A stretch of DNA of 29,025 nt. It comes from a candidate division WOR-3 bacterium. Lineage in GTDB: Bacteria > Hydrothermota > Tepidihabitantia > Tepidihabitantales > Tepidihabitantaceae. Position numbers: made by a program. The stretch covers positions 1-29,025 of the forward strand of contig CBFGIT010000032.1 of NCBI GenBank assembly GCA_965648905.1. Direction: 5' to 3'. Shown piece after piece: positions 9,001 through 18,000 of this stretch; within the stretch, counting starts at the first letter, position 1, and each line of letters opens with the position of its first letter.

Positions 9001-12000
9001 GAACAGGTACTCAGCAGCATGTCGGTCAGCAGTACCGTCGAGTATCATGGGCCGCCCCTCGAACGCCTTGCGCGTCAAGCCCAGGGCAGGAGCGGCGGTC
9101 AGGAGCACGACGGCCACGAGCCGCAATGCTCTTAGTTCTCGTCCGTTCCCGGACGCTACTCCTCGATGAATCCCGAAGGTATCTCCTCCGGCACAGACTG
9201 GCCGCACTGGCGCTGCTGCACTTTGGCGTCGGTCTTGTAGGAGCCGGTGCGGCGGCGTTCTTCGCCGATAGAGAAGACCTGGATGGCGGCCGGACCTTCA
9301 AGCGGGCAACGCGCTTCGCACGCGCCGCAGCCGACACACGCCTCGGCATTCACCGACGGCCGCAAAGCCTGCCCCATGCCGGTCGGGTCCTTGACCGCGT
9401 TGATGGCGTCGTAAGGGCAGGCTTCGTCGCAGACCAGGCAGTGCTTGTCGCGTTCCCAGGCCAGGCAGCGGCTGCGGTCCACGGCCGCGGTGCCCATCTT
9501 GGCATAGCTCTTTTCTTCGAGCGACAGGTTGCGGATAGCACCGGTCGGGCACGCCCGACCGCACAGGTTGCAGTTCTTCTCGCAGGCACCGACACGCGGC
9601 ACGACTCTCGGGGTCCAAAATCCGTTCACGCCGGACTCGAGGATGGCCGGCTGCAGACACCCGCTCGGGCAGGCCTTGATGCACCGGTCGCAGCGCAGGC
9701 AGGTGGCAAGAAAACTTGCCTCAGGCAGAGCGCCCGGTGGTCGGATGAGCCGGGAGGTAAGCCGCGCGTGCAGCAGGCTGCGCGCGAGCGGTGCAAGAAG
9801 AAGAGCAGAGCCGGCTGCAAGGATTGTTTCGCGGCGACCGATGTCGAACCTCTCAGGCCTTGTCTGCACGCGGTAGCCGACGGTTCCGTGTGCGCAGCGG
9901 TACTTGCAGGCCAGACAGTCGATGCACTCGGATGAGTCAATGCGGCGCTCGGCCGACTTGACGGCTCCGGTCGGGCAGGCTGACTCGCACAGGCCGCATT
10001 CCTTGCACTCATTCTGAAACGCGAACTTGAACAGAGAGAAGCGCGAGCAGATGGCAAGCAGGCCACCGAGCGGGCACAGATTGCGGCACCAGAACCGTGG
10101 GGCGACAAACCCGAACAGGAGGATGCCGGCAAAGGTCGCGAAAGCCGTGAATGTCTCGGTTACTGTGACAGCCCGGGTTGCGCCGACCAGGCCCGCAAGA
10201 TACGTGCCGACCGGGTAGAAGACAAGGGCGAGGGTGCGCTCCATTATGACCAGCGGGTCGAAGAAGCCGATGAACGACGCGCCGAGGAGCGCAGACAGAA
10301 GCAGGAACAGGAGCAGCGCGTACTTCAGGTTGCGCAGCGGCGAACCCGGCCTGTTTCTGCGCCGGACCACTGCGTCAAACAGGTCGATGGTTGTGCCCAA
10401 GGGGCAGACGAACCCGCAGAAGAAGCGCCCAAAGACCAACGTGGCCACCACCAGGATGAGCGCAGGCAGGGCCGCAGCCACGAGAACTCGAGCAGCCAGG
10501 CTTGTCACCACAAGTACCAGCGGGTCGAATCGGAAGAAGACGTCACCGCCAACCGGGCTTGTGCCGTACCGGGTCCTGAGGAACAGAGCAATGAACAGCG
10601 CAAGAAAGGCGAGCTGTATTGCCCACCTGATTAGCCGTTCGGCTGCGAGCTTCGGTCGGCTCACCCGGCTAGGCTTTGACTTCCCTTAGGTCCATCTTTG
10701 CCGGGTCGATTTCGCCCAGCTTGTGCGCCGCGGCCGCGACGATGTACTTCACGCCTTTGCCGGTGAATGACTTGTTGTACCACTGGGTGATGCCGACTGC
10801 GTAGGAGTCGACCGCAACCGGGTCAGTGCCGGCGATGACCGTGTCGAGTTGCACGGTCTTGCCTGGTCCGCCCGGCCCGCCGCTGGTCAGCGCCCGGGTT
10901 GCGTCGACGACGATGAGCTGGGGTTTGACCACCGTAGCCAGGTCGGCAATGCACTGGTGCAGATTGAGCGAATGGAACGTGCCGCGGTCCCAGATGAGTC
11001 CCATCAGGTTCTTCATGCCCAGGCTCACGCCGGTGGCCGAGTGGGACTTGGCCGTGGGCAGATTGATGAGCTTATCTGACTCGAGCACGGCCCGGGCAAC
11101 TCTGGTCGTCTTCAGTTCCCTGCCCTGTTCAACTTTGACTTCAACGAACTGCCGCTCCTTGCCGAGCGTCAGCACGCTGACCTTGTCTTTGTCGAGCACG
11201 GCCTTGTTGACGCCGCTCTTCTCCACACAGACCTCGGCGCTGGCCAGGGTGTGGTCGACCAAAATGATTCGGGCCGCGCCCGCCTCAAGACACAATTGCA
11301 CGACCTGCTGCATCACCTCGGCGCTGGTCGTGGCCCCGCAGTCGGCATTGGCGGCAAACGAGATATTCGGCTTGATGCAGACCTTGTCCCCGGGTTTGAC
11401 GAACATCTTGATGCCGCCGAGTGCGTCGAGTGCGGCCTTGACCAGCTTTGACCGGTTGCCGCGTGCGACCGCGACGGCCGGGCCGGCAGGCTGCTCAGCC
11501 TCGGCCGCGACCAGGCTGCGCGGCAGCAGGGCCAGCGCGGCCGCGCCCAAGCCCAGTTTCAGAAAGTCGCGCCGCGAGACGCTGTGCAGGCGGTCCGGAA
11601 TTCTGCGCTCTGCTTTCTGCATTCTGACTTCGCTCCTACTGCCTTATCGCCTGAGAGATGTTGCGGCAGAACAGCTTGGCCACGAGCAGGGCCGCGTCCG
11701 AGTTCTCCTGGATGGTGACCCAGACATAGTAGCGGCCGTCGCGGAAATCGACTCTGTACGAGAAGAGCTGCTGCTCGATGCGGGCCTCGTCTCCGGCATT
11801 ATCCCCGGTCCACGGCACCTCGACGCCGGTAGCGACCGCACCGTACACGCCGCGGGCGTTGGTCGAGTCGGCCATGTCGAAGATGCGCAGGTTCAAGTCC
11901 ACGGTTGTGCCTGAGGGCGAACCGGTGTAGTCCTGGAACGCACAACGAACAAAGCCGTGTTCGACATAGGGTACACCCTCACCGTCAATCAGGTCGTACA

Positions 12001-15000: not shown

Positions 15001-18000
15001 CCGCCCGACGTATTCAGCCAGGTGCTTATGGCCGTGCCGCTCCTGGCGCTCTTTGAACTCAGTATCCTGGCTTCCTTCCTCGCCCGTCCGCGCCCCACCG
15101 GCTGAGCCGCAGGCAGGATGATGTTCAGTTCCTTCTGAGTCATGCTGGTTCGCTGATAGAATGGAGCCATGGATAAGACCCTGAAACAGCGATATGAGGC
15201 TCTGAAGGCGATGGTCGTGAAACGGAAGGAACCGTTCGACCAGTTCATGGCTTTCCTCGAAGAGAAGACGTCGTGGCTTGAGAGTCCGGCCAGCACCCGG
15301 TTTCATTTGGCTGAGAAGCACGGGCTGCTGAAGCATTCGGTCGGTGTGGCTGAGACCCTGCTCAGATTACGTGCCTGCCTTGCGCCGCAGTTGTCCGAGG
15401 AGAGTTGTGTAATCGTCGGTCTGCTGCATGACGTCGGCAAGGTCGGCATGCCGGGCAAGCCGCTGTATTTACCGAACGAGAACGAGTGGGAGAAGAAGAA
15501 CCGGGGCATGATGTACAAGTACAATGCGGAAGTGACCGCGATGGGTCTGGCCGTGCGCAGCCTGTACCTTGTTACCAAGTACCTGCCGCTGTCCGACGCG
15601 GAAGCGCAGGCGATATGCTATCACGACGGCCCTTACATAGCGGAGAACGAAGCGGTTGCCCATGACGAAGAACCTTTGACGCTGCTTGTGCACTGGGCCG
15701 ACTACTGGACCGCGCACATCTTCGAAGGCGGGCGCGCGGTAAGAGAGAGCGAAGACTACTTCGACCGCGAACCGGGCCCGGGCTGATGAGTAGCCGTCTG
15801 CGTCCGAAGCTGCCATCGACAACGACGCCAGCATGGTTTGACTTCATCCGGCATCGTGTTAACATTGAAGTCCGCACTGACAACCTAACATGACAGACGA
15901 CACTAGAATCGAGGTCAGAAGACCTCTTCCGCAGTTGCCCAAGCGACATTGAACTGGAGGTATGATGGCTGAAGCCTGTTTCGACCTGGGCGGCAAGGTT
16001 CTGGAAGTCCGGTGGCACGGCCGTGGCGGACAGGGCGCGAAGACCGCAGCCCTGTTGTTCGGCGAATCCGCGCTCGACACCGGTATGCACATCCAGGCGT
16101 TTCCCGAGTATGGCCCGGAGCGCATGGGCGCACCGGTGGCGGCGTTCAACCGCATTTCGGACAAGCCGATTCGGTCTCACTCCGGCATCAAGGAGCCGGA
16201 CATTGTGGTGGTGCTCGACCCGTCGCTGATTGAACCGGCGCGGGTTACCGATGGCTTGAAGCCGAACGGTATCATCCTTGTGAACTCGACCGAGAGCCCG
16301 GCTGAAATGCGCAAGCGGCTCAAGGTGCCCGAGACGGTGACGGTCTACACCGTGGACGCGTCGAAGATCGCGCAGGAAACCGTGGGCAAGGACGTGCCCA
16401 ATACGCCGATGCTCGGGGCGCTGGTGAAGGTCACCAATGTGCTGAAGTTTGACGCGATGATGAAGGCGATTGAGCAGAAGCTCTCGGAGAAGTTCACCGG
16501 CGGCAAGGCGAAGTTTGTGAAGCCGAACCTGGAAAGCGTGCGCCGGTCGTACGAAGAGGTGCGCTGCTAATGACGAATTGCGAATGCCGAATGACGAATG
16601 AGAGGACGGAATGGCGAAGCTGAAGAGCTGGCGCGAGCTGCCCTGCGGAGCGATCATCGAAGACCCGAAGGCAGTGCTCGACAACAAGACCGGGGCCTGG
16701 CGCAGCATGCGGCCGGAGTGGAACGCCGACAACTGCTCCCAGTGTCTGACCTGCTGGGTCTACTGTCCGGACGCGGCGATCGTCGTGAAGGATGGTAAGA
16801 TGACGGGCATCGACTACGAGTACTGCAAAGGCTGCGGTATCTGTGCCGCGGTCTGCCCGGGCAAGAAGCAGGTGAAAGCGATTACCATGGGAAGGGAGAA
16901 GAAGTGATGAGAGGGCGAAGGCAGAAGGCAGAATGCAGAAGGCAGAGTGCAGAAATGCCGGCTGCGGACCGGGAGGCAGGATGATACTGGCGAAAACAGG
17001 CAATGAGGCACTGGCGTATGCGATGAAGCAGATCAACCCGGACGTGGTGGCAGCATATCCGATAACGCCGTCGACGGAAATCGTGCAGATATTCGCCGGG
17101 TATGTGAACGACGGCCTGGTCGACACAGAGTTTGTCGCCGTCGAGAGCGAGCACTCAGCCATGGCCGCGTGCATCGGCTCGGCTGCATGCGGGTGTCGGA
17201 CCATGACCGCCACGGCATCGCAGGGGCTGATGTTGATGCACGAGATGCTGTTCATCGCCGGTGGACTGAGGCTGCCGATTGTGATGCCGATTGCGTCGCG
17301 TTCGGTTTCGTCGCCCTTGAACATCCACGGCGACCACTCGGACTCGATTGCGTCGCGCGACTCGGGCTGGCTGCAGTTCTTCTGCGAAACAGTGCAGGAA
17401 GGGTACGACACGCTCATTCAGGCGGTGAAGATTGCCGAGAAGGCGAGCCTGCCGGCAATCGTCGCGGTGGACGGGTTCATTCTCTCGCACTGCATGGAGC
17501 GCATCGAGACGTTCGAGGACTCTTCGGTGCGCGGCTGGCTGGGCCGGTGGCAGCCGAACTGGAATCTGCTGGACTTGAAGAGACCGATTCTGGTCGGGCC
17601 GGCGACGATGCAGGACTACTACTTTGAGTTCAAGCGCTCTCAGATTGAGGGGATGAACCGGGTCCTGCCGGTCATCGAGGAAGTGCAGGCGGATTTCCGG
17701 AAGCACTTCGGCCGCGGCTACGGCATCATCGATGAATATCGGACCGATGATGCCGAGGCGGTGGTGCTGCTCATGGGCTCGGCCTGCGGCACGATGCGCG
17801 AGGCGGTGGACGCGTTGCGCAACGAGGGCAAGAAAGTCGGAATGGTGAAGCTGCGGGTCTTTCGACCTCTGCCGCATACCATCTTGAAGAAGGCCTTGGC
17901 CCGGTTCAAGACGGTTGCGGTCATGGACCGGGTCGACGCTGTGAACTCTTACGGCGGGCCGCTCTACACTGAAGTGACCTCGCTGCTCTATGACCTGCCC

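Follow-up and report, generated by a model that had tools for sequence, protein, structure and literature searches.

A conserved five-gene envelope module of a candidate division WOR-3 bacterium is headed by a DUF362 protein with a predicted twin-arginine signal and a type IX secretion tail

Export through the twin-arginine (Tat) translocase followed by type II secretion is known for the Pseudomonas aeruginosa phospholipases PlcH and PlcN. In Shewanella, the surface DMSO reductase DmsAB works with the DmsEF conduit, and the barrel gene is encoded alongside the enzyme. The abstract of PMC4899797 likewise mentions that some Tat-exported proteins are secreted further. For type IX secretion (T9SS), passages of several reviews state that all effectors bear a Sec signal (PMC10202324, PMC8047123, PMC9251779, PMC13721041). 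A polyferredoxin of MLMS-1, built like the one described below, was shown to be Sec/Tat dual-targeted, according to passages of Tooke et al. 2017 (PMC5449189). The DUF362 domain shares Pfam clan CL0471 with the LarA superfamily of nickel-pincer nucleotide racemases and epimerases, as given in passages of PMC11770544.

The window analysed here, a stretch of 29,025 nucleotides, comes from an uncultured WOR-3 bacterium whose genome is 99.6% complete. It encodes a DUF362 protein with a C-terminal domain (DUF362-CTD), which pairs a signal for folded proteins with a T9SS tail, while the passages of the reviews give just the unfolded Sec route; no published description of such a pairing was found in the literature. 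The comparison set comprised 272 WOR-3 genomes, 45 with the DUF362-CTD gene and 227 without it.

Table 1. Coordinates of the genes and features of the locus within the window.
Feature	Position	Strand	Remarks
SprA-like outer-membrane protein "BIG1339"	5188..9126	-	fold match to SprA; ends ...ITGQF
Polyferredoxin	9156..10664	-	open frame
Polyferredoxin internal twin-arginine motif and fifth helix, residues 277-296	9777..9836	-	RRETILAAGSALLLAPLARS; RR conservation
DUF362b (g02137, 317 aa)	10669..11622	-	PF04015 168.2 bits; PF10518 TAT_signal 25.2/22.7
DUF6599 lipoprotein (335 aa)	11636..12643	-	PF20244 68 bits, two stretches
DUF362-CTD (g02139, 440 aa)	12647..13969	-	PF04015 62.1 bits
Predicted type A T9SS C-terminal domain of DUF362-CTD, residues 355-440	12650..12907	-	seven-strand beta-sandwich
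DUF362 catalytic-type domain of DUF362-CTD, residues 45-312	13034..13837	-	LarA N-domain fold
Predicted Tat signal peptide of DUF362-CTD, residues 1-29	13883..13969	-	SRRDFLK, h-region and basic c-region
Divergent intergenic region DUF362-CTD/tatA	13970..14162	.	193 bases
tatA (65 aa)	14163..14360	+	TIGR01411 71.6/53.9; PF02416 65.9 bits
tatC (229 aa)	14416..15105	+	TIGR00945 210.4/132.7

The six genes from the polyferredoxin to tatC, reported in the initial annotation, were all recovered as open reading frames at the positions listed, and the divergent orientation of the DUF362-CTD operon and tatA-tatC was found again. From DUF362-CTD to the polyferredoxin, the intergenic gaps on the minus strand measure 3, 13 and 4 bases. 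This operon had been described as comprising four genes; the count needs to be raised to five, as the SprA-like barrel gene follows 3' of the polyferredoxin in the colinear module of 15 of 20 loci. The longest frame of this gene begins at 9207, and its likely start is the TTG at 9126. A complete five-gene module was also found in a record labelled TA06, and partial, contig-limited versions in Zixibacteria and LCP-89. Taken as a whole, the locus is a conserved envelope module of five genes (DUF362-CTD, DUF6599 lipoprotein, DUF362b, NapH-NapG-type polyferredoxin and SprA-like barrel), which in the window's bacterial family is physically joined to the sole tatA-tatC of the genome, each of the two tat genes being present in a single copy.

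The signal of DUF362-CTD consists of SRRDFLK, a Gly-rich h-region (FIGIGAVGLAV) and a basic c-region (RPR). TIGR01409 matches it at residues 4-22 with 21.6 bits (cut-off 16.7), and TIGR04183 matches residues 358-436 with 24.3 bits (cut-off 23; 27.7 bits in a six-frame search); both values, just above their cut-offs on this protein, reproduce exactly those reported earlier. The two profiles are matched by 40 and 35 of 46 aligned relatives, respectively, TIGR04183 with a best E of 2e-9. The claim that the motif is kept across homologues was likewise upheld: the strict pattern [ST]RRxF[LIVM][KRQ] is present in 112 of 120 listed homologues, six of the eight exceptions lacking the N-terminus and the other two reading RRDFRK and GRDFLK, and RR is retained in 113 of the 114 with a complete N-terminus. 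The 46-sequence alignment shows no variation at R6, R7 and F9. In an alignment of 126 representatives at 50% identity, 114 of which cover the signal columns (R6 in 112, R7 in 110, F9 in 107), the RR and F columns are conserved to the same degree as the core residues. Judging by these counts, both the Tat signal and the T9SS tail are selected at the level of the family. A classic AxA cleavage site was not seen after the signal; cleavage is likely near LPG/LTR, a site placed by eye. If the signal were left uncleaved, it would anchor the protein in the inner membrane.

Of the 45 WOR-3 genomes that carry the DUF362-CTD gene, TatC was found in 43 (the other two are 84% and 81% complete), and of the 227 without it in 107, although the genomes are kin and not independent, so that these counts of co-occurrence exaggerate the support. 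Within the window's own family, 10 of 43 genomes contain TatC and 11 of 43 the DUF362-CTD gene; the two sets coincide except for one gene-bearing genome, 84% complete, without a TatC match, and in all ten TatC genomes the distance between tatC and the DUF362-CTD gene is no more than about 1.1 kb. It could be supposed that the protein, despite its twin-arginine motif, crosses by Sec or by either pathway and is an ordinary Sec-dependent T9SS cargo. Signals of Tat appearance can be promiscuous, and the h-region hydrophobicity is ordinary (2.36, 62nd from the bottom among 204 CTD proteins of the genome), lying inside the Sec range of these proteins, and therefore does not discriminate Tat from Sec. 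A representative cluster (P0172) also combines the domain and the T9SS tail with a Sec-looking signal. This supposition is nevertheless quite improbable: the whole SRRxFLK with the basic residues after the h-region is conserved like active-site residues, which is not expected of Sec signals, Tat presence tracks the gene over the 272 genomes, and within the window's family Tat occurs only beside it.

The tail of DUF362-CTD forms a separate seven-strand sandwich at residues 357-436 in an AlphaFold model made anew (AF2, pLDDT 85.8), as had been stated before of an earlier model. It follows a disordered linker and stops 4 residues short of the C-terminal end. The reported likeness to solved T9SS CTDs was also obtained again, with matches to the CTDs of mirolase (8qb1; TM on target 0.64, Z 10.6, rmsd 2.1, 77 aligned) and NucA (8glk_D; TM 0.61, Z 9.0) and to PorZ (5m11), as well as to the PorU CTD (6za2; Z 10.7). 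In a tblastn search, many other frames of the genome proved to have C-terminal tails matching this one, at 26-37% identity and with a best E of 1e-11, and a profile of the family tail found 97 genome frames in the first pass.

Rather than act as a secretion signal, an Ig-like domain of this kind might dock to DUF6599 or to the SprA-like barrel, at its propeller or its periplasmic mouth, so that a Tat-exported DUF362-CTD would stay in the periplasm in a redox complex that the polyferredoxin supplies. The sandwich fold is matched at Z 8-9 by many Ig-like domains that are unrelated, the TIGR04183 score is marginal, a surface enzyme could hardly take electrons from a periplasmic polyferredoxin, and the module brings its own barrel and lipoprotein, confined to it. 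Such docking is considered unlikely, since the tail is homologous in sequence to tails of many proteins of the same genome, stands at the very C-terminus after a disordered linker and reaches the profile in most relatives, and since the tail-less paralogue DUF362b already takes a periplasmic role.

Secretion of DUF362-CTD by T9SS-type machinery, the preferred reading, is consistent with the gene content of the genome, which includes SprA (456 bits), two PorU-like genes (about 355 bits) and a PorV-like gene directly 3' of one of them, and in which at least 144 frames exceed the TIGR04183 cut-off. Searches of the genome for the motor genes GldL and GldM gave no match, and the control searches were equally silent. 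The claim central to the initial annotation, that one protein beside tatAC unites a Tat signal with a type A T9SS tail, is supported by every computational test applied to it: the motif conservation and family-level model matches, the homology of the tail to the genome's other CTDs, these machinery genes, and the co-occurrence and adjacency of tatC.

The SprA-like protein has an N-terminal Reg_prop/PorZ-like beta-propeller region (Reg_prop 21.5/20.4) and a C-terminal beta-barrel region of about 940 residues with a SprA-like fold. In a Foldseek search with the model of residues 400-1339 (AF2; pLDDT 82.8, pTM 0.71), SprA took the first four places, with E values from 6e-17 to 8e-9 and a TM on query of 0.48-0.57, and the next match had an E of 2e-6; comparison with 6h3i_A (VIA) gave Z 16.9 with 888 aligned residues and rmsd 8.9. 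Aligned with the SprA of the same genome, the protein shows 27% identity in 248 columns (E 1e-11), and TIGR04189 gives a local match of 37-39 bits, far under the cut-off of 200.

As to function, the module might serve nutrient uptake in the style of a polysaccharide utilisation locus, which would be compatible with the route through Tat and the T9SS. DUF362-CTD and DUF6599, as a surface lipoprotein, would then act on a polymer at the surface, the large barrel would import the product, and DUF362b and the polyferredoxin would process it in the periplasm. Fusions with dockerin, fn3, Ig and RGI-lyase-type sheet domains occur among relatives of the DUF362 domain, and passages of PMC5742341 describe DUF362-CBM9-dockerin proteins in lignocellulose enrichments; an Atlas cluster resembling the barrel protein, in which DUF6599 is present on 46% of members, is a lead only. 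It does not seem likely that this is the role of the module, given that the barrel is far closer to SprA than to SusC/TonB-dependent transporters (E 6e-17 against 1e-4), and that domain searches found neither a plug-domain family in the barrel protein nor glycoside hydrolases in the module.

DUF362b is predicted to be a periplasmic DUF362 protein with a Tat signal and without a CTD; of 16 orthologue N-termini, 15 show [ST/N]RRxF[LIV], the sixteenth frame being called too long upstream, which hides the motif. The DUF6599 protein is a tandem duplication, most relatives having about 165-200 aa, and both halves match single-domain orthologues; in most orthologues the signal ends in Cys. The polyferredoxin is a fusion of a NapH-like membrane part (residues 11-267; 79.9 bits, E 1.7e-22) and a NapG-like part with four [4Fe-4S] motifs (residues 292-477; 99.4 bits, E 1.8e-28), both scores under the equivalog cut-offs, with matches to Fer4 families. 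Its fifth helix is weakly hydrophobic, with basic residues after it, and is preceded by the invariant R277 and R278 (alignment A4); this internal RR helix is kept in 17 of 17 sequences (query and 16 orthologues), making the polyferredoxin a fourth candidate Tat client. The genome had been credited with just three Tat proteins. A strict scan for RRxF[LIVM] gave 40 matches among 11307 genome frames of at least 80 aa and refound the same three as those with a credible h-region and a real-looking N-terminus, namely the two DUF362 proteins and a 181-aa Metal_resist/LTXXQ protein on contig C33, but the restriction to three overlooked the internal helix. Tat use by the C33 protein, which is Spy/CpxP-like, is doubtful.

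The DUF362 domain of DUF362-CTD conserves K99, N101, D140, K207, H209, K219, N220, H233, D264, D290 and D295, and no conserved Cys was found in the 126-sequence alignment. The kinship with LarA had been taken as a hint of a nickel-pincer cofactor. This cofactor was rejected, since in the 99.6% complete genome LarC had no match and the best LarE match reached 44 bits against a cut-off of 150; the cofactor must therefore be a different one. As a conserved Cys is also lacking, the reason why DUF362 would need Tat is a matter of inference. 2x[4Fe-4S] motifs are present in two of the three DUF362 paralogues that are cytoplasmic, and these ferredoxin fusions, together with the polyferredoxin, suggest that a substrate in the envelope or outside the cell undergoes a redox reaction; we infer that the locus is a cofactor-loaded envelope redox module.

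The proposed route, including the redox role, is regarded as probable, with due reserve. The two DUF362 proteins would fold in the cytoplasm, probably loading a metal or organic cofactor at the conserved Lys/His/Asp site, and a minimal TatAC translocase is predicted to export both by their SRRDFLK signals. The polyferredoxin would be inserted by Sec (NapH-like helices) and Tat (fifth helix), which, by homology to the tested protein, would place four [4Fe-4S] clusters in the periplasm. DUF362b would remain periplasmic, whereas DUF362-CTD would be recognised by its type A C-terminal domain and cross the outer membrane, still folded, to the cell surface through T9SS-type machinery. This would be the canonical SprA/PorV/PorU set or else the SprA-like barrel that the module itself encodes.

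Compared with type A CTD cargo (P. gingivalis RgpB, T. forsythia mirolase, F. johnsoniae NucA, RemA), DUF362-CTD likewise ends in a seven-strand sandwich, matches TIGR04183 and solved CTD folds, and belongs to a host with SprA, PorU-like and PorV-like genes; unlike this cargo, its family has a conserved twin-arginine signal and not a Sec signal. SprA/Sov, the translocon of the T9SS in the outer membrane (6h3i, 6h3j, 8gl6, 8gl8), is the best fold match for the C-terminal 940 residues of the SprA-like protein, and a stretch of about 200-250 residues is similar to the genome's SprA. The SprA-like protein differs in its length (~1310 residues against ~1900), in its N-terminal propeller region and in being tied to this module (it occurs in 48 of 272 genomes, among them all 45 that have DUF362-CTD), whereas canonical SprA is present in 259 of 272. 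The DUF362 domain resembles the LarA N-terminal domain in fold (Z 14.3-16.3 with 7s91, 9eia, 9q3j, 4nar and 5huq; VIA), with an identity of merely 7-12%, in a genome without LarC and a true LarE. The MLMS-1 protein, as described in the passages of its report, shares the fusion of NapH-like and NapG-like tetra-cluster parts and the twin-arginine motif, which immediately precedes a fifth helix of weak hydrophobicity with positive charges after it; here, the module of the candidate Tat client also encodes a SprA-like barrel and two DUF362 proteins with Tat signals. The proposed route shares with the Tat-then-type-II systems the folded export by Tat and a second step in which another machine takes the folded protein across the outer membrane, and with DmsAB/DmsEF the co-encoded barrel, but its outer-membrane step would be of T9SS type, with a C-terminal domain as the signal and without cytochromes.

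Five genes of the window follow one another closely on the reverse strand. The gene of DUF362-CTD, a protein combining a twin-arginine (Tat) signal, a DUF362 domain and a type A sorting tail of the T9SS (type IX secretion system), is followed by genes for a DUF6599 lipoprotein, a second DUF362 protein without a tail (DUF362b), a NapH-like polyferredoxin and a large SprA-like protein. The first four are separated by 3, 13 and 4 bases, and 193 bases lie between the start of DUF362-CTD and the divergent tatA. The initial annotation proposed an operon of four genes; these four are found as described, and the extent needs enlarging, since the same order with the large protein in fifth place is colinear in 15 of the 20 orthologue loci fetched. 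The remaining five loci are mostly cut by contig ends or rearranged. The longest reading of the fifth frame runs into the end of the polyferredoxin gene; read instead from a TTG at 9126, 30 bases past the polyferredoxin stop, the protein has a plausible signal peptide and is as long as its same-genus orthologue. An HD-domain gene after tatC was considered as a further member; none of the 20 loci has an equivalent, and the gene was therefore not counted in the module. The tandem duplication of the DUF6599 domain occurs only in this genome and in a same-genus genome. Most other DUF6599 orthologues are single-domain proteins of approximately 165–200 aa, and some loci possess two separate DUF6599 genes. 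A search for sequencing runs listed none of RNA; one DNA run contained a 0.13 share of the words.

Coordinates of the module, the tat genes and other features of the window (scores in bits, with cut-offs where given)
Feature	Coordinates	Strand	Remark
Restriction-modification pair	1084-3357	-	Eco29kI-type endonuclease (217.8 bits) adjoining an N6/N4 DNA methylase
Large protein (SprA-like)	5188-9207	-	open frame; longest frame, 1339 aa
Polyferredoxin	9156-10664	-	open frame; 502 aa
DUF362b	10669-11622	-	open frame; 317 aa
DUF6599 protein	11636-12643	-	open frame; 335 aa
DUF362-CTD	12647-13969	-	open frame; 440 aa
tatA	14163-14360	+	clear TIGR profile match, 71.6 (cut-off 53.9)
tatC	14416-15105	+	clear TIGR profile match, 210.4 (cut-off 132.7)
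Pyruvate/2-oxoacid:ferredoxin oxidoreductase	15962-19163	+	three genes: POR gamma, POR_N/PFOR_II, TPP-binding
Two frames	19177-21625		no family match in either
Two-component pair	21640-24485	-	sigma-54-dependent response regulator and histidine kinase
M28 peptidase with T9SS tail	25390-28014	+	874 aa

The N-terminus of DUF362-CTD reads MKDVSRRDFLKFIGIGAVGLAVRPRGLPG and contains the full Tat consensus, with SRRDFLK at residues 5–11 in the n-region, a Gly-rich h-region and then basic residues. The TIGR01409 match reported earlier at residues 4–22 was reproduced with the same score (21.6 bits, cut-off 16.7), and the Tat signal ascribed to DUF362b is borne out by the Pfam family TAT_signal (25.2 bits, cut-off 22.7). 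The motif [ST]RRxF[LIVM][KRQ] is retained in 112 of the 120 listed homologues of DUF362-CTD, six of the eight exceptions being without the N-terminus. R6, R7 and F9 are invariant in an alignment of 46 sequences, 40 of which match TIGR01409, and the h-region FIGIGAVGLAV with the RPR behind it is also conserved among the relatives. An HMMER search of 1.84 billion representatives yielded 108 proteins at E ≤1e-30; among the best 150 representatives, the strict Tat motif is found in 97 and a looser form in another 24, and most of the others are N-terminal fragments. In a more distant alignment of 126 sequences, 114 of which cover the N-terminal columns, R6 is present in 112, R7 in 110 and F9 in 107, and the core residues K99, K207, H209, K219, N220, H233, D264, D290 and D295 show conservation equal to that of these three positions. 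DUF362-CTD is probably exported via Tat. By the hydrophobicity of its h-region (2.36 versus a median of 2.71 for the T9SS-tailed proteins of the genome, the 62nd lowest of 204), the signal cannot be told apart from Sec signals of the genome. A natural exception among the homologues is the P0172 cluster, which has a DUF362 domain and a tail behind a Sec-looking N-terminus (VRKGLVVSLILLGVGLAHG) without RR. Two further relatives, P0129 and P0130 (1384 and 1071 aa), combine a Tat motif with four or three DUF362 domains in tandem and a tail at the C-terminus.

The tatA and tatC genes are adjacent to each other and present in a single copy in the genome. The nearest relatives in the database bear the name candidate division WOR-3. 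Among 272 WOR-3 genomes, the DUF362-CTD gene was found in 45 and TatC in 150. TatC accompanies the DUF362-CTD gene in 43 of these 45, the two exceptions being 84% and 81% complete, and is encoded in 107 of the 227 genomes without it. In the 43 other genomes of the window's own family, TatC occurs in 10 and the DUF362-CTD gene in 11; the two sets coincide except for one 84% complete genome, in which the gene is present and TatC was not found. Their distribution is patchy and extends across six genera, and the distance from tatC to the DUF362-CTD gene is no more than about 1.1 kb in 10 out of 10 cases. In other WOR-3 families Tat is commoner and located away from this gene. As related genomes are not independent, the counts are not statistics; they constitute strong circumstantial evidence that the Tat genes track the DUF362-CTD gene. 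The search did not find TatC in 122 of the 272 genomes, whole families among them, and a large part of the WOR-3 phylum appears able to dispense with Tat.

The initial annotation assigned Tat motifs to only three proteins of the genome. A strict motif scan again gives just three, namely DUF362-CTD, DUF362b and a Spy/CpxP-like Metal_resist protein, and the count is incomplete in one respect, as the internal RR pair of the polyferredoxin makes it a further predicted client. A loose scan returned 157 matches and is uninformative, because most of them are Sec-type signals with RR in the n-region. Residues 11–267 of the polyferredoxin match NapH (E 1.7e-22), from which the number of N-terminal helices was taken, and residues 292–477 match NapG (E 1.8e-28), with four Cys-cluster motifs readable at 322–454. 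Between the two parts lies FDIGRRETILAAGSALLLAPLARSLLHAR, where RR stands directly before a weakly hydrophobic helix that is followed by basic residues; the query and all of 16 orthologues keep both arginines. The MLMS-1 polyferredoxin has the same architecture of a NapH-like part, an RR helix and a NapG-like tetra-cluster part, and reporter fusions made by Tooke et al. (PMC5449189) showed its dependence on Sec together with Tat. Since the RR helix adds to the Tat signals of the two DUF362 proteins, three of the five module proteins are predicted Tat clients. A predicted complex of polyferredoxin residues 300–480, with four 4Fe-4S clusters, and DUF362b residues 44–316 scored 0.01.

At the C-terminus of DUF362-CTD, the match to TIGR04183, which together with PF18962 represents the T9SS type A C-terminal domains, was identical on rerun (residues 358–436). 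It reaches 24.3 bits in the protein search and 27.7 in the six-frame search, both marginal to the cut-off of 23; 35 of the 46 relatives match the family, with a best E of 2e-9. The separate beta-sandwich noted previously was recovered in a new AlphaFold model (46 sequences, pLDDT 85.8), in which the signal is disordered, residues 41–340 form a compact domain, 344–353 a floppy low-confidence linker and 357–436, of 440 in all, a seven-stranded sandwich. The sandwich resembles the T9SS tails of mirolase (8qb1; Z 10.6, rmsd 2.1), PorU (6za2; Z 10.7), NucA (8glk_D; Z 9.0) and PorZ (5m11; Z 8.3), matches that stand among many generic Ig-like ones at Z 8–9. At least 144 frames of the genome exceed the TIGR04183 cut-off. 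A tblastn search with the DUF362-CTD tail found the C-terminal ends of many frames (26–37% identity, best E 1e-11), and a profile built from the tails of the DUF362-CTD family only retrieved 97 frames on its initial pass and, by the third, 218 C-terminal tails. Among the 218 tailed frames, the full Tat consensus is confined to DUF362-CTD; in four others RR stands right against a strongly hydrophobic core of Sec type. The closest relative of the tail within the window, also among the tblastn matches, is that of the M28 peptidase (37.5% identity).

As for the secretion machinery, the genome encodes an SprA of 1903 residues over the cut-off (456 bits), two near full-length PorU-like proteins below theirs (357 and 354.5 bits, cut-off 420), a PorV-like protein, also below, directly after one of these (77 bits, cut-off 250), and a GldK-like match (107 bits, cut-off 350). 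The GldL and GldM profiles found no match in the genome, but the control genomes were equally silent, so these searches are uninformative. It is likely that DUF362-CTD passes the outer membrane by a T9SS-type route, and we lean towards the full route, Tat and then T9SS.

The large fifth protein has a Sec-type signal and ends in a conserved ...ITGQF; a Reg_prop/PorZ propeller is weakly signalled within the first 400 residues. TIGR04189, with a cut-off of 200, gives only a local match of 37–39 bits at model positions 582–651; the genome's own SprA shares 27% identity with the protein over 248 columns (E 1e-11). The AlphaFold model of the last 940 residues (pLDDT 82.8, pTM 0.71) is all-beta, mostly in long strands. 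In Foldseek, its best four matches are structures of SprA, the T9SS outer-membrane translocon (8gl6_A, 8gl8, 6h3i and 6h3j), with TM on the query reaching 0.55–0.57 (8gl6_A: 0.55, E 6e-17), and the next match stands at E 2e-6. SprA likewise comes out on top in VIA, a structure aligner independent of Foldseek (888 of 940 residues aligned at Z 16.9, with a high rmsd of 8.9), ahead of smaller barrels at Z 14–16. The model presents a predicted giant single-chain beta-barrel of the SprA fold. Orthologues were found in 48 of the 272 genomes, comprising all 45 with DUF362-CTD and three more, each encoding TatC; canonical SprA is present in 259. Its fold, local similarity and distribution indicate that the fifth gene is a module-specific, shortened SprA relative that falls outside TIGR04189 by score. 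A word-based homologue search with the barrel found 8 proteins only. In its cluster of protein-language-model look-alikes, DUF6599 occurs on 46% and Reg_prop on 42% of members, a lead suggesting that the DUF6599 lipoprotein and the barrel work together. A third frame, of 1137 aa, has a weak local SprA match (16.9 bits at C30:27458-27610, on another contig) and may be another SprA-related barrel.

PF04015 recognises the DUF362 domain in DUF362-CTD (62.1 bits) and DUF362b (168.2 bits) over a cut-off of 24, and the domain has the fold of the LarA N-terminal part (Z 14.3–16.3, 204–212 residues aligned). A sequence search of solved structures gave nothing meaningful for either protein. The kinship with LarA had been taken as a hint of a nickel-pincer cofactor, and this hint did not survive a search of the genome (99.6% complete) for LarC and LarE of the LarB-LarC-LarE cofactor pathway. 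LarC had no match and the best LarE match (44.2 bits) is far below the cut-off of 150, which makes such a cofactor in DUF362 unlikely and led to its rejection. An iron-sulfur cluster inside the DUF362 domain was also rejected: no cysteine is conserved across the family, so the domain itself has no such cluster. Three more DUF362 genes occur in the genome, all lacking signals, and two of them carry 2x[4Fe-4S] motifs; these paralogues parallel the pairing of DUF362b with the polyferredoxin and point to an electron-dependent reaction. The pyruvate/2-oxoacid:ferredoxin oxidoreductase genes, just past tatC and the unconserved HD-domain gene, encode a possible source of reduced ferredoxin. Among its relatives, DUF362 occurs in as many as four tandem copies and is found with dockerin, fn3, Ig and RGI-lyase-type domains, and PMC5742341 mentions DUF362-CBM9-dockerin proteins.

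Of the best 150 representatives, at least 27 combine a tail with the strict Tat motif, a number that rises to 33 with the looser motif; named members include TA06 bacterium KPJ50490.1 and the Bacteroidetes MAG OYT13208.1. The whole five-gene module is present in a record labelled TA06 DG_78, and partial, contig-limited versions in Zixibacteria SM23_81 and LCP-89 records. Reviews from 2021, 2022, 2023 and 2026 treat T9SS cargo as Sec-dependent without exception (PMC8047123, PMC9251779, PMC10202324, PMC13721041). A literature search outside which most subscription papers lay turned up no description of T9SS cargo that depends on Tat, nor of a shortened paralogue of SprA. The predicted passage through Tat and then T9SS is well supported computationally. 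The window itself contributes the linkage to Tat, the module of five genes with its private SprA-like barrel, the predicted dual targeting of the polyferredoxin and the exclusion, as unlikely, of a nickel-pincer cofactor.

A bolder and rather doubtful proposal is that the module forms a self-contained secretion-and-respiration unit, uniting a Tat to 'mini-T9SS' pathway with a cytochrome-free redox chain. The minimal TatAC would then be kept in the lineage essentially for the module. A pre-folded, cofactor-loaded enzyme would pass the outer membrane via the private shortened SprA-type translocon, for which DUF6599 might serve as a plug or shuttle. The redox chain would begin at the quinone pool with the polyferredoxin, continue in the periplasm with DUF362b and end at the cell surface with DUF362-CTD.

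If DUF362-CTD does follow Tat and then T9SS, the T9SS accepts proteins folded, and probably loaded with a cofactor, in the cytoplasm, and does so in a conserved multi-phylum family. The genetic argument comes from one family, which has kept Tat solely where the module is present, and adjacent to it. The module-restricted short SprA paralogue could be a tractable translocon model or a new type of outer-membrane partner. The large uncharacterised DUF362 family gains a first view as extracytoplasmic, Tat-dependent by prediction, ferredoxin-linked and probably not nickel-pincer. The same two-step principle operates in Proteobacteria, where folded proteins pass through Tat and then the T2SS.
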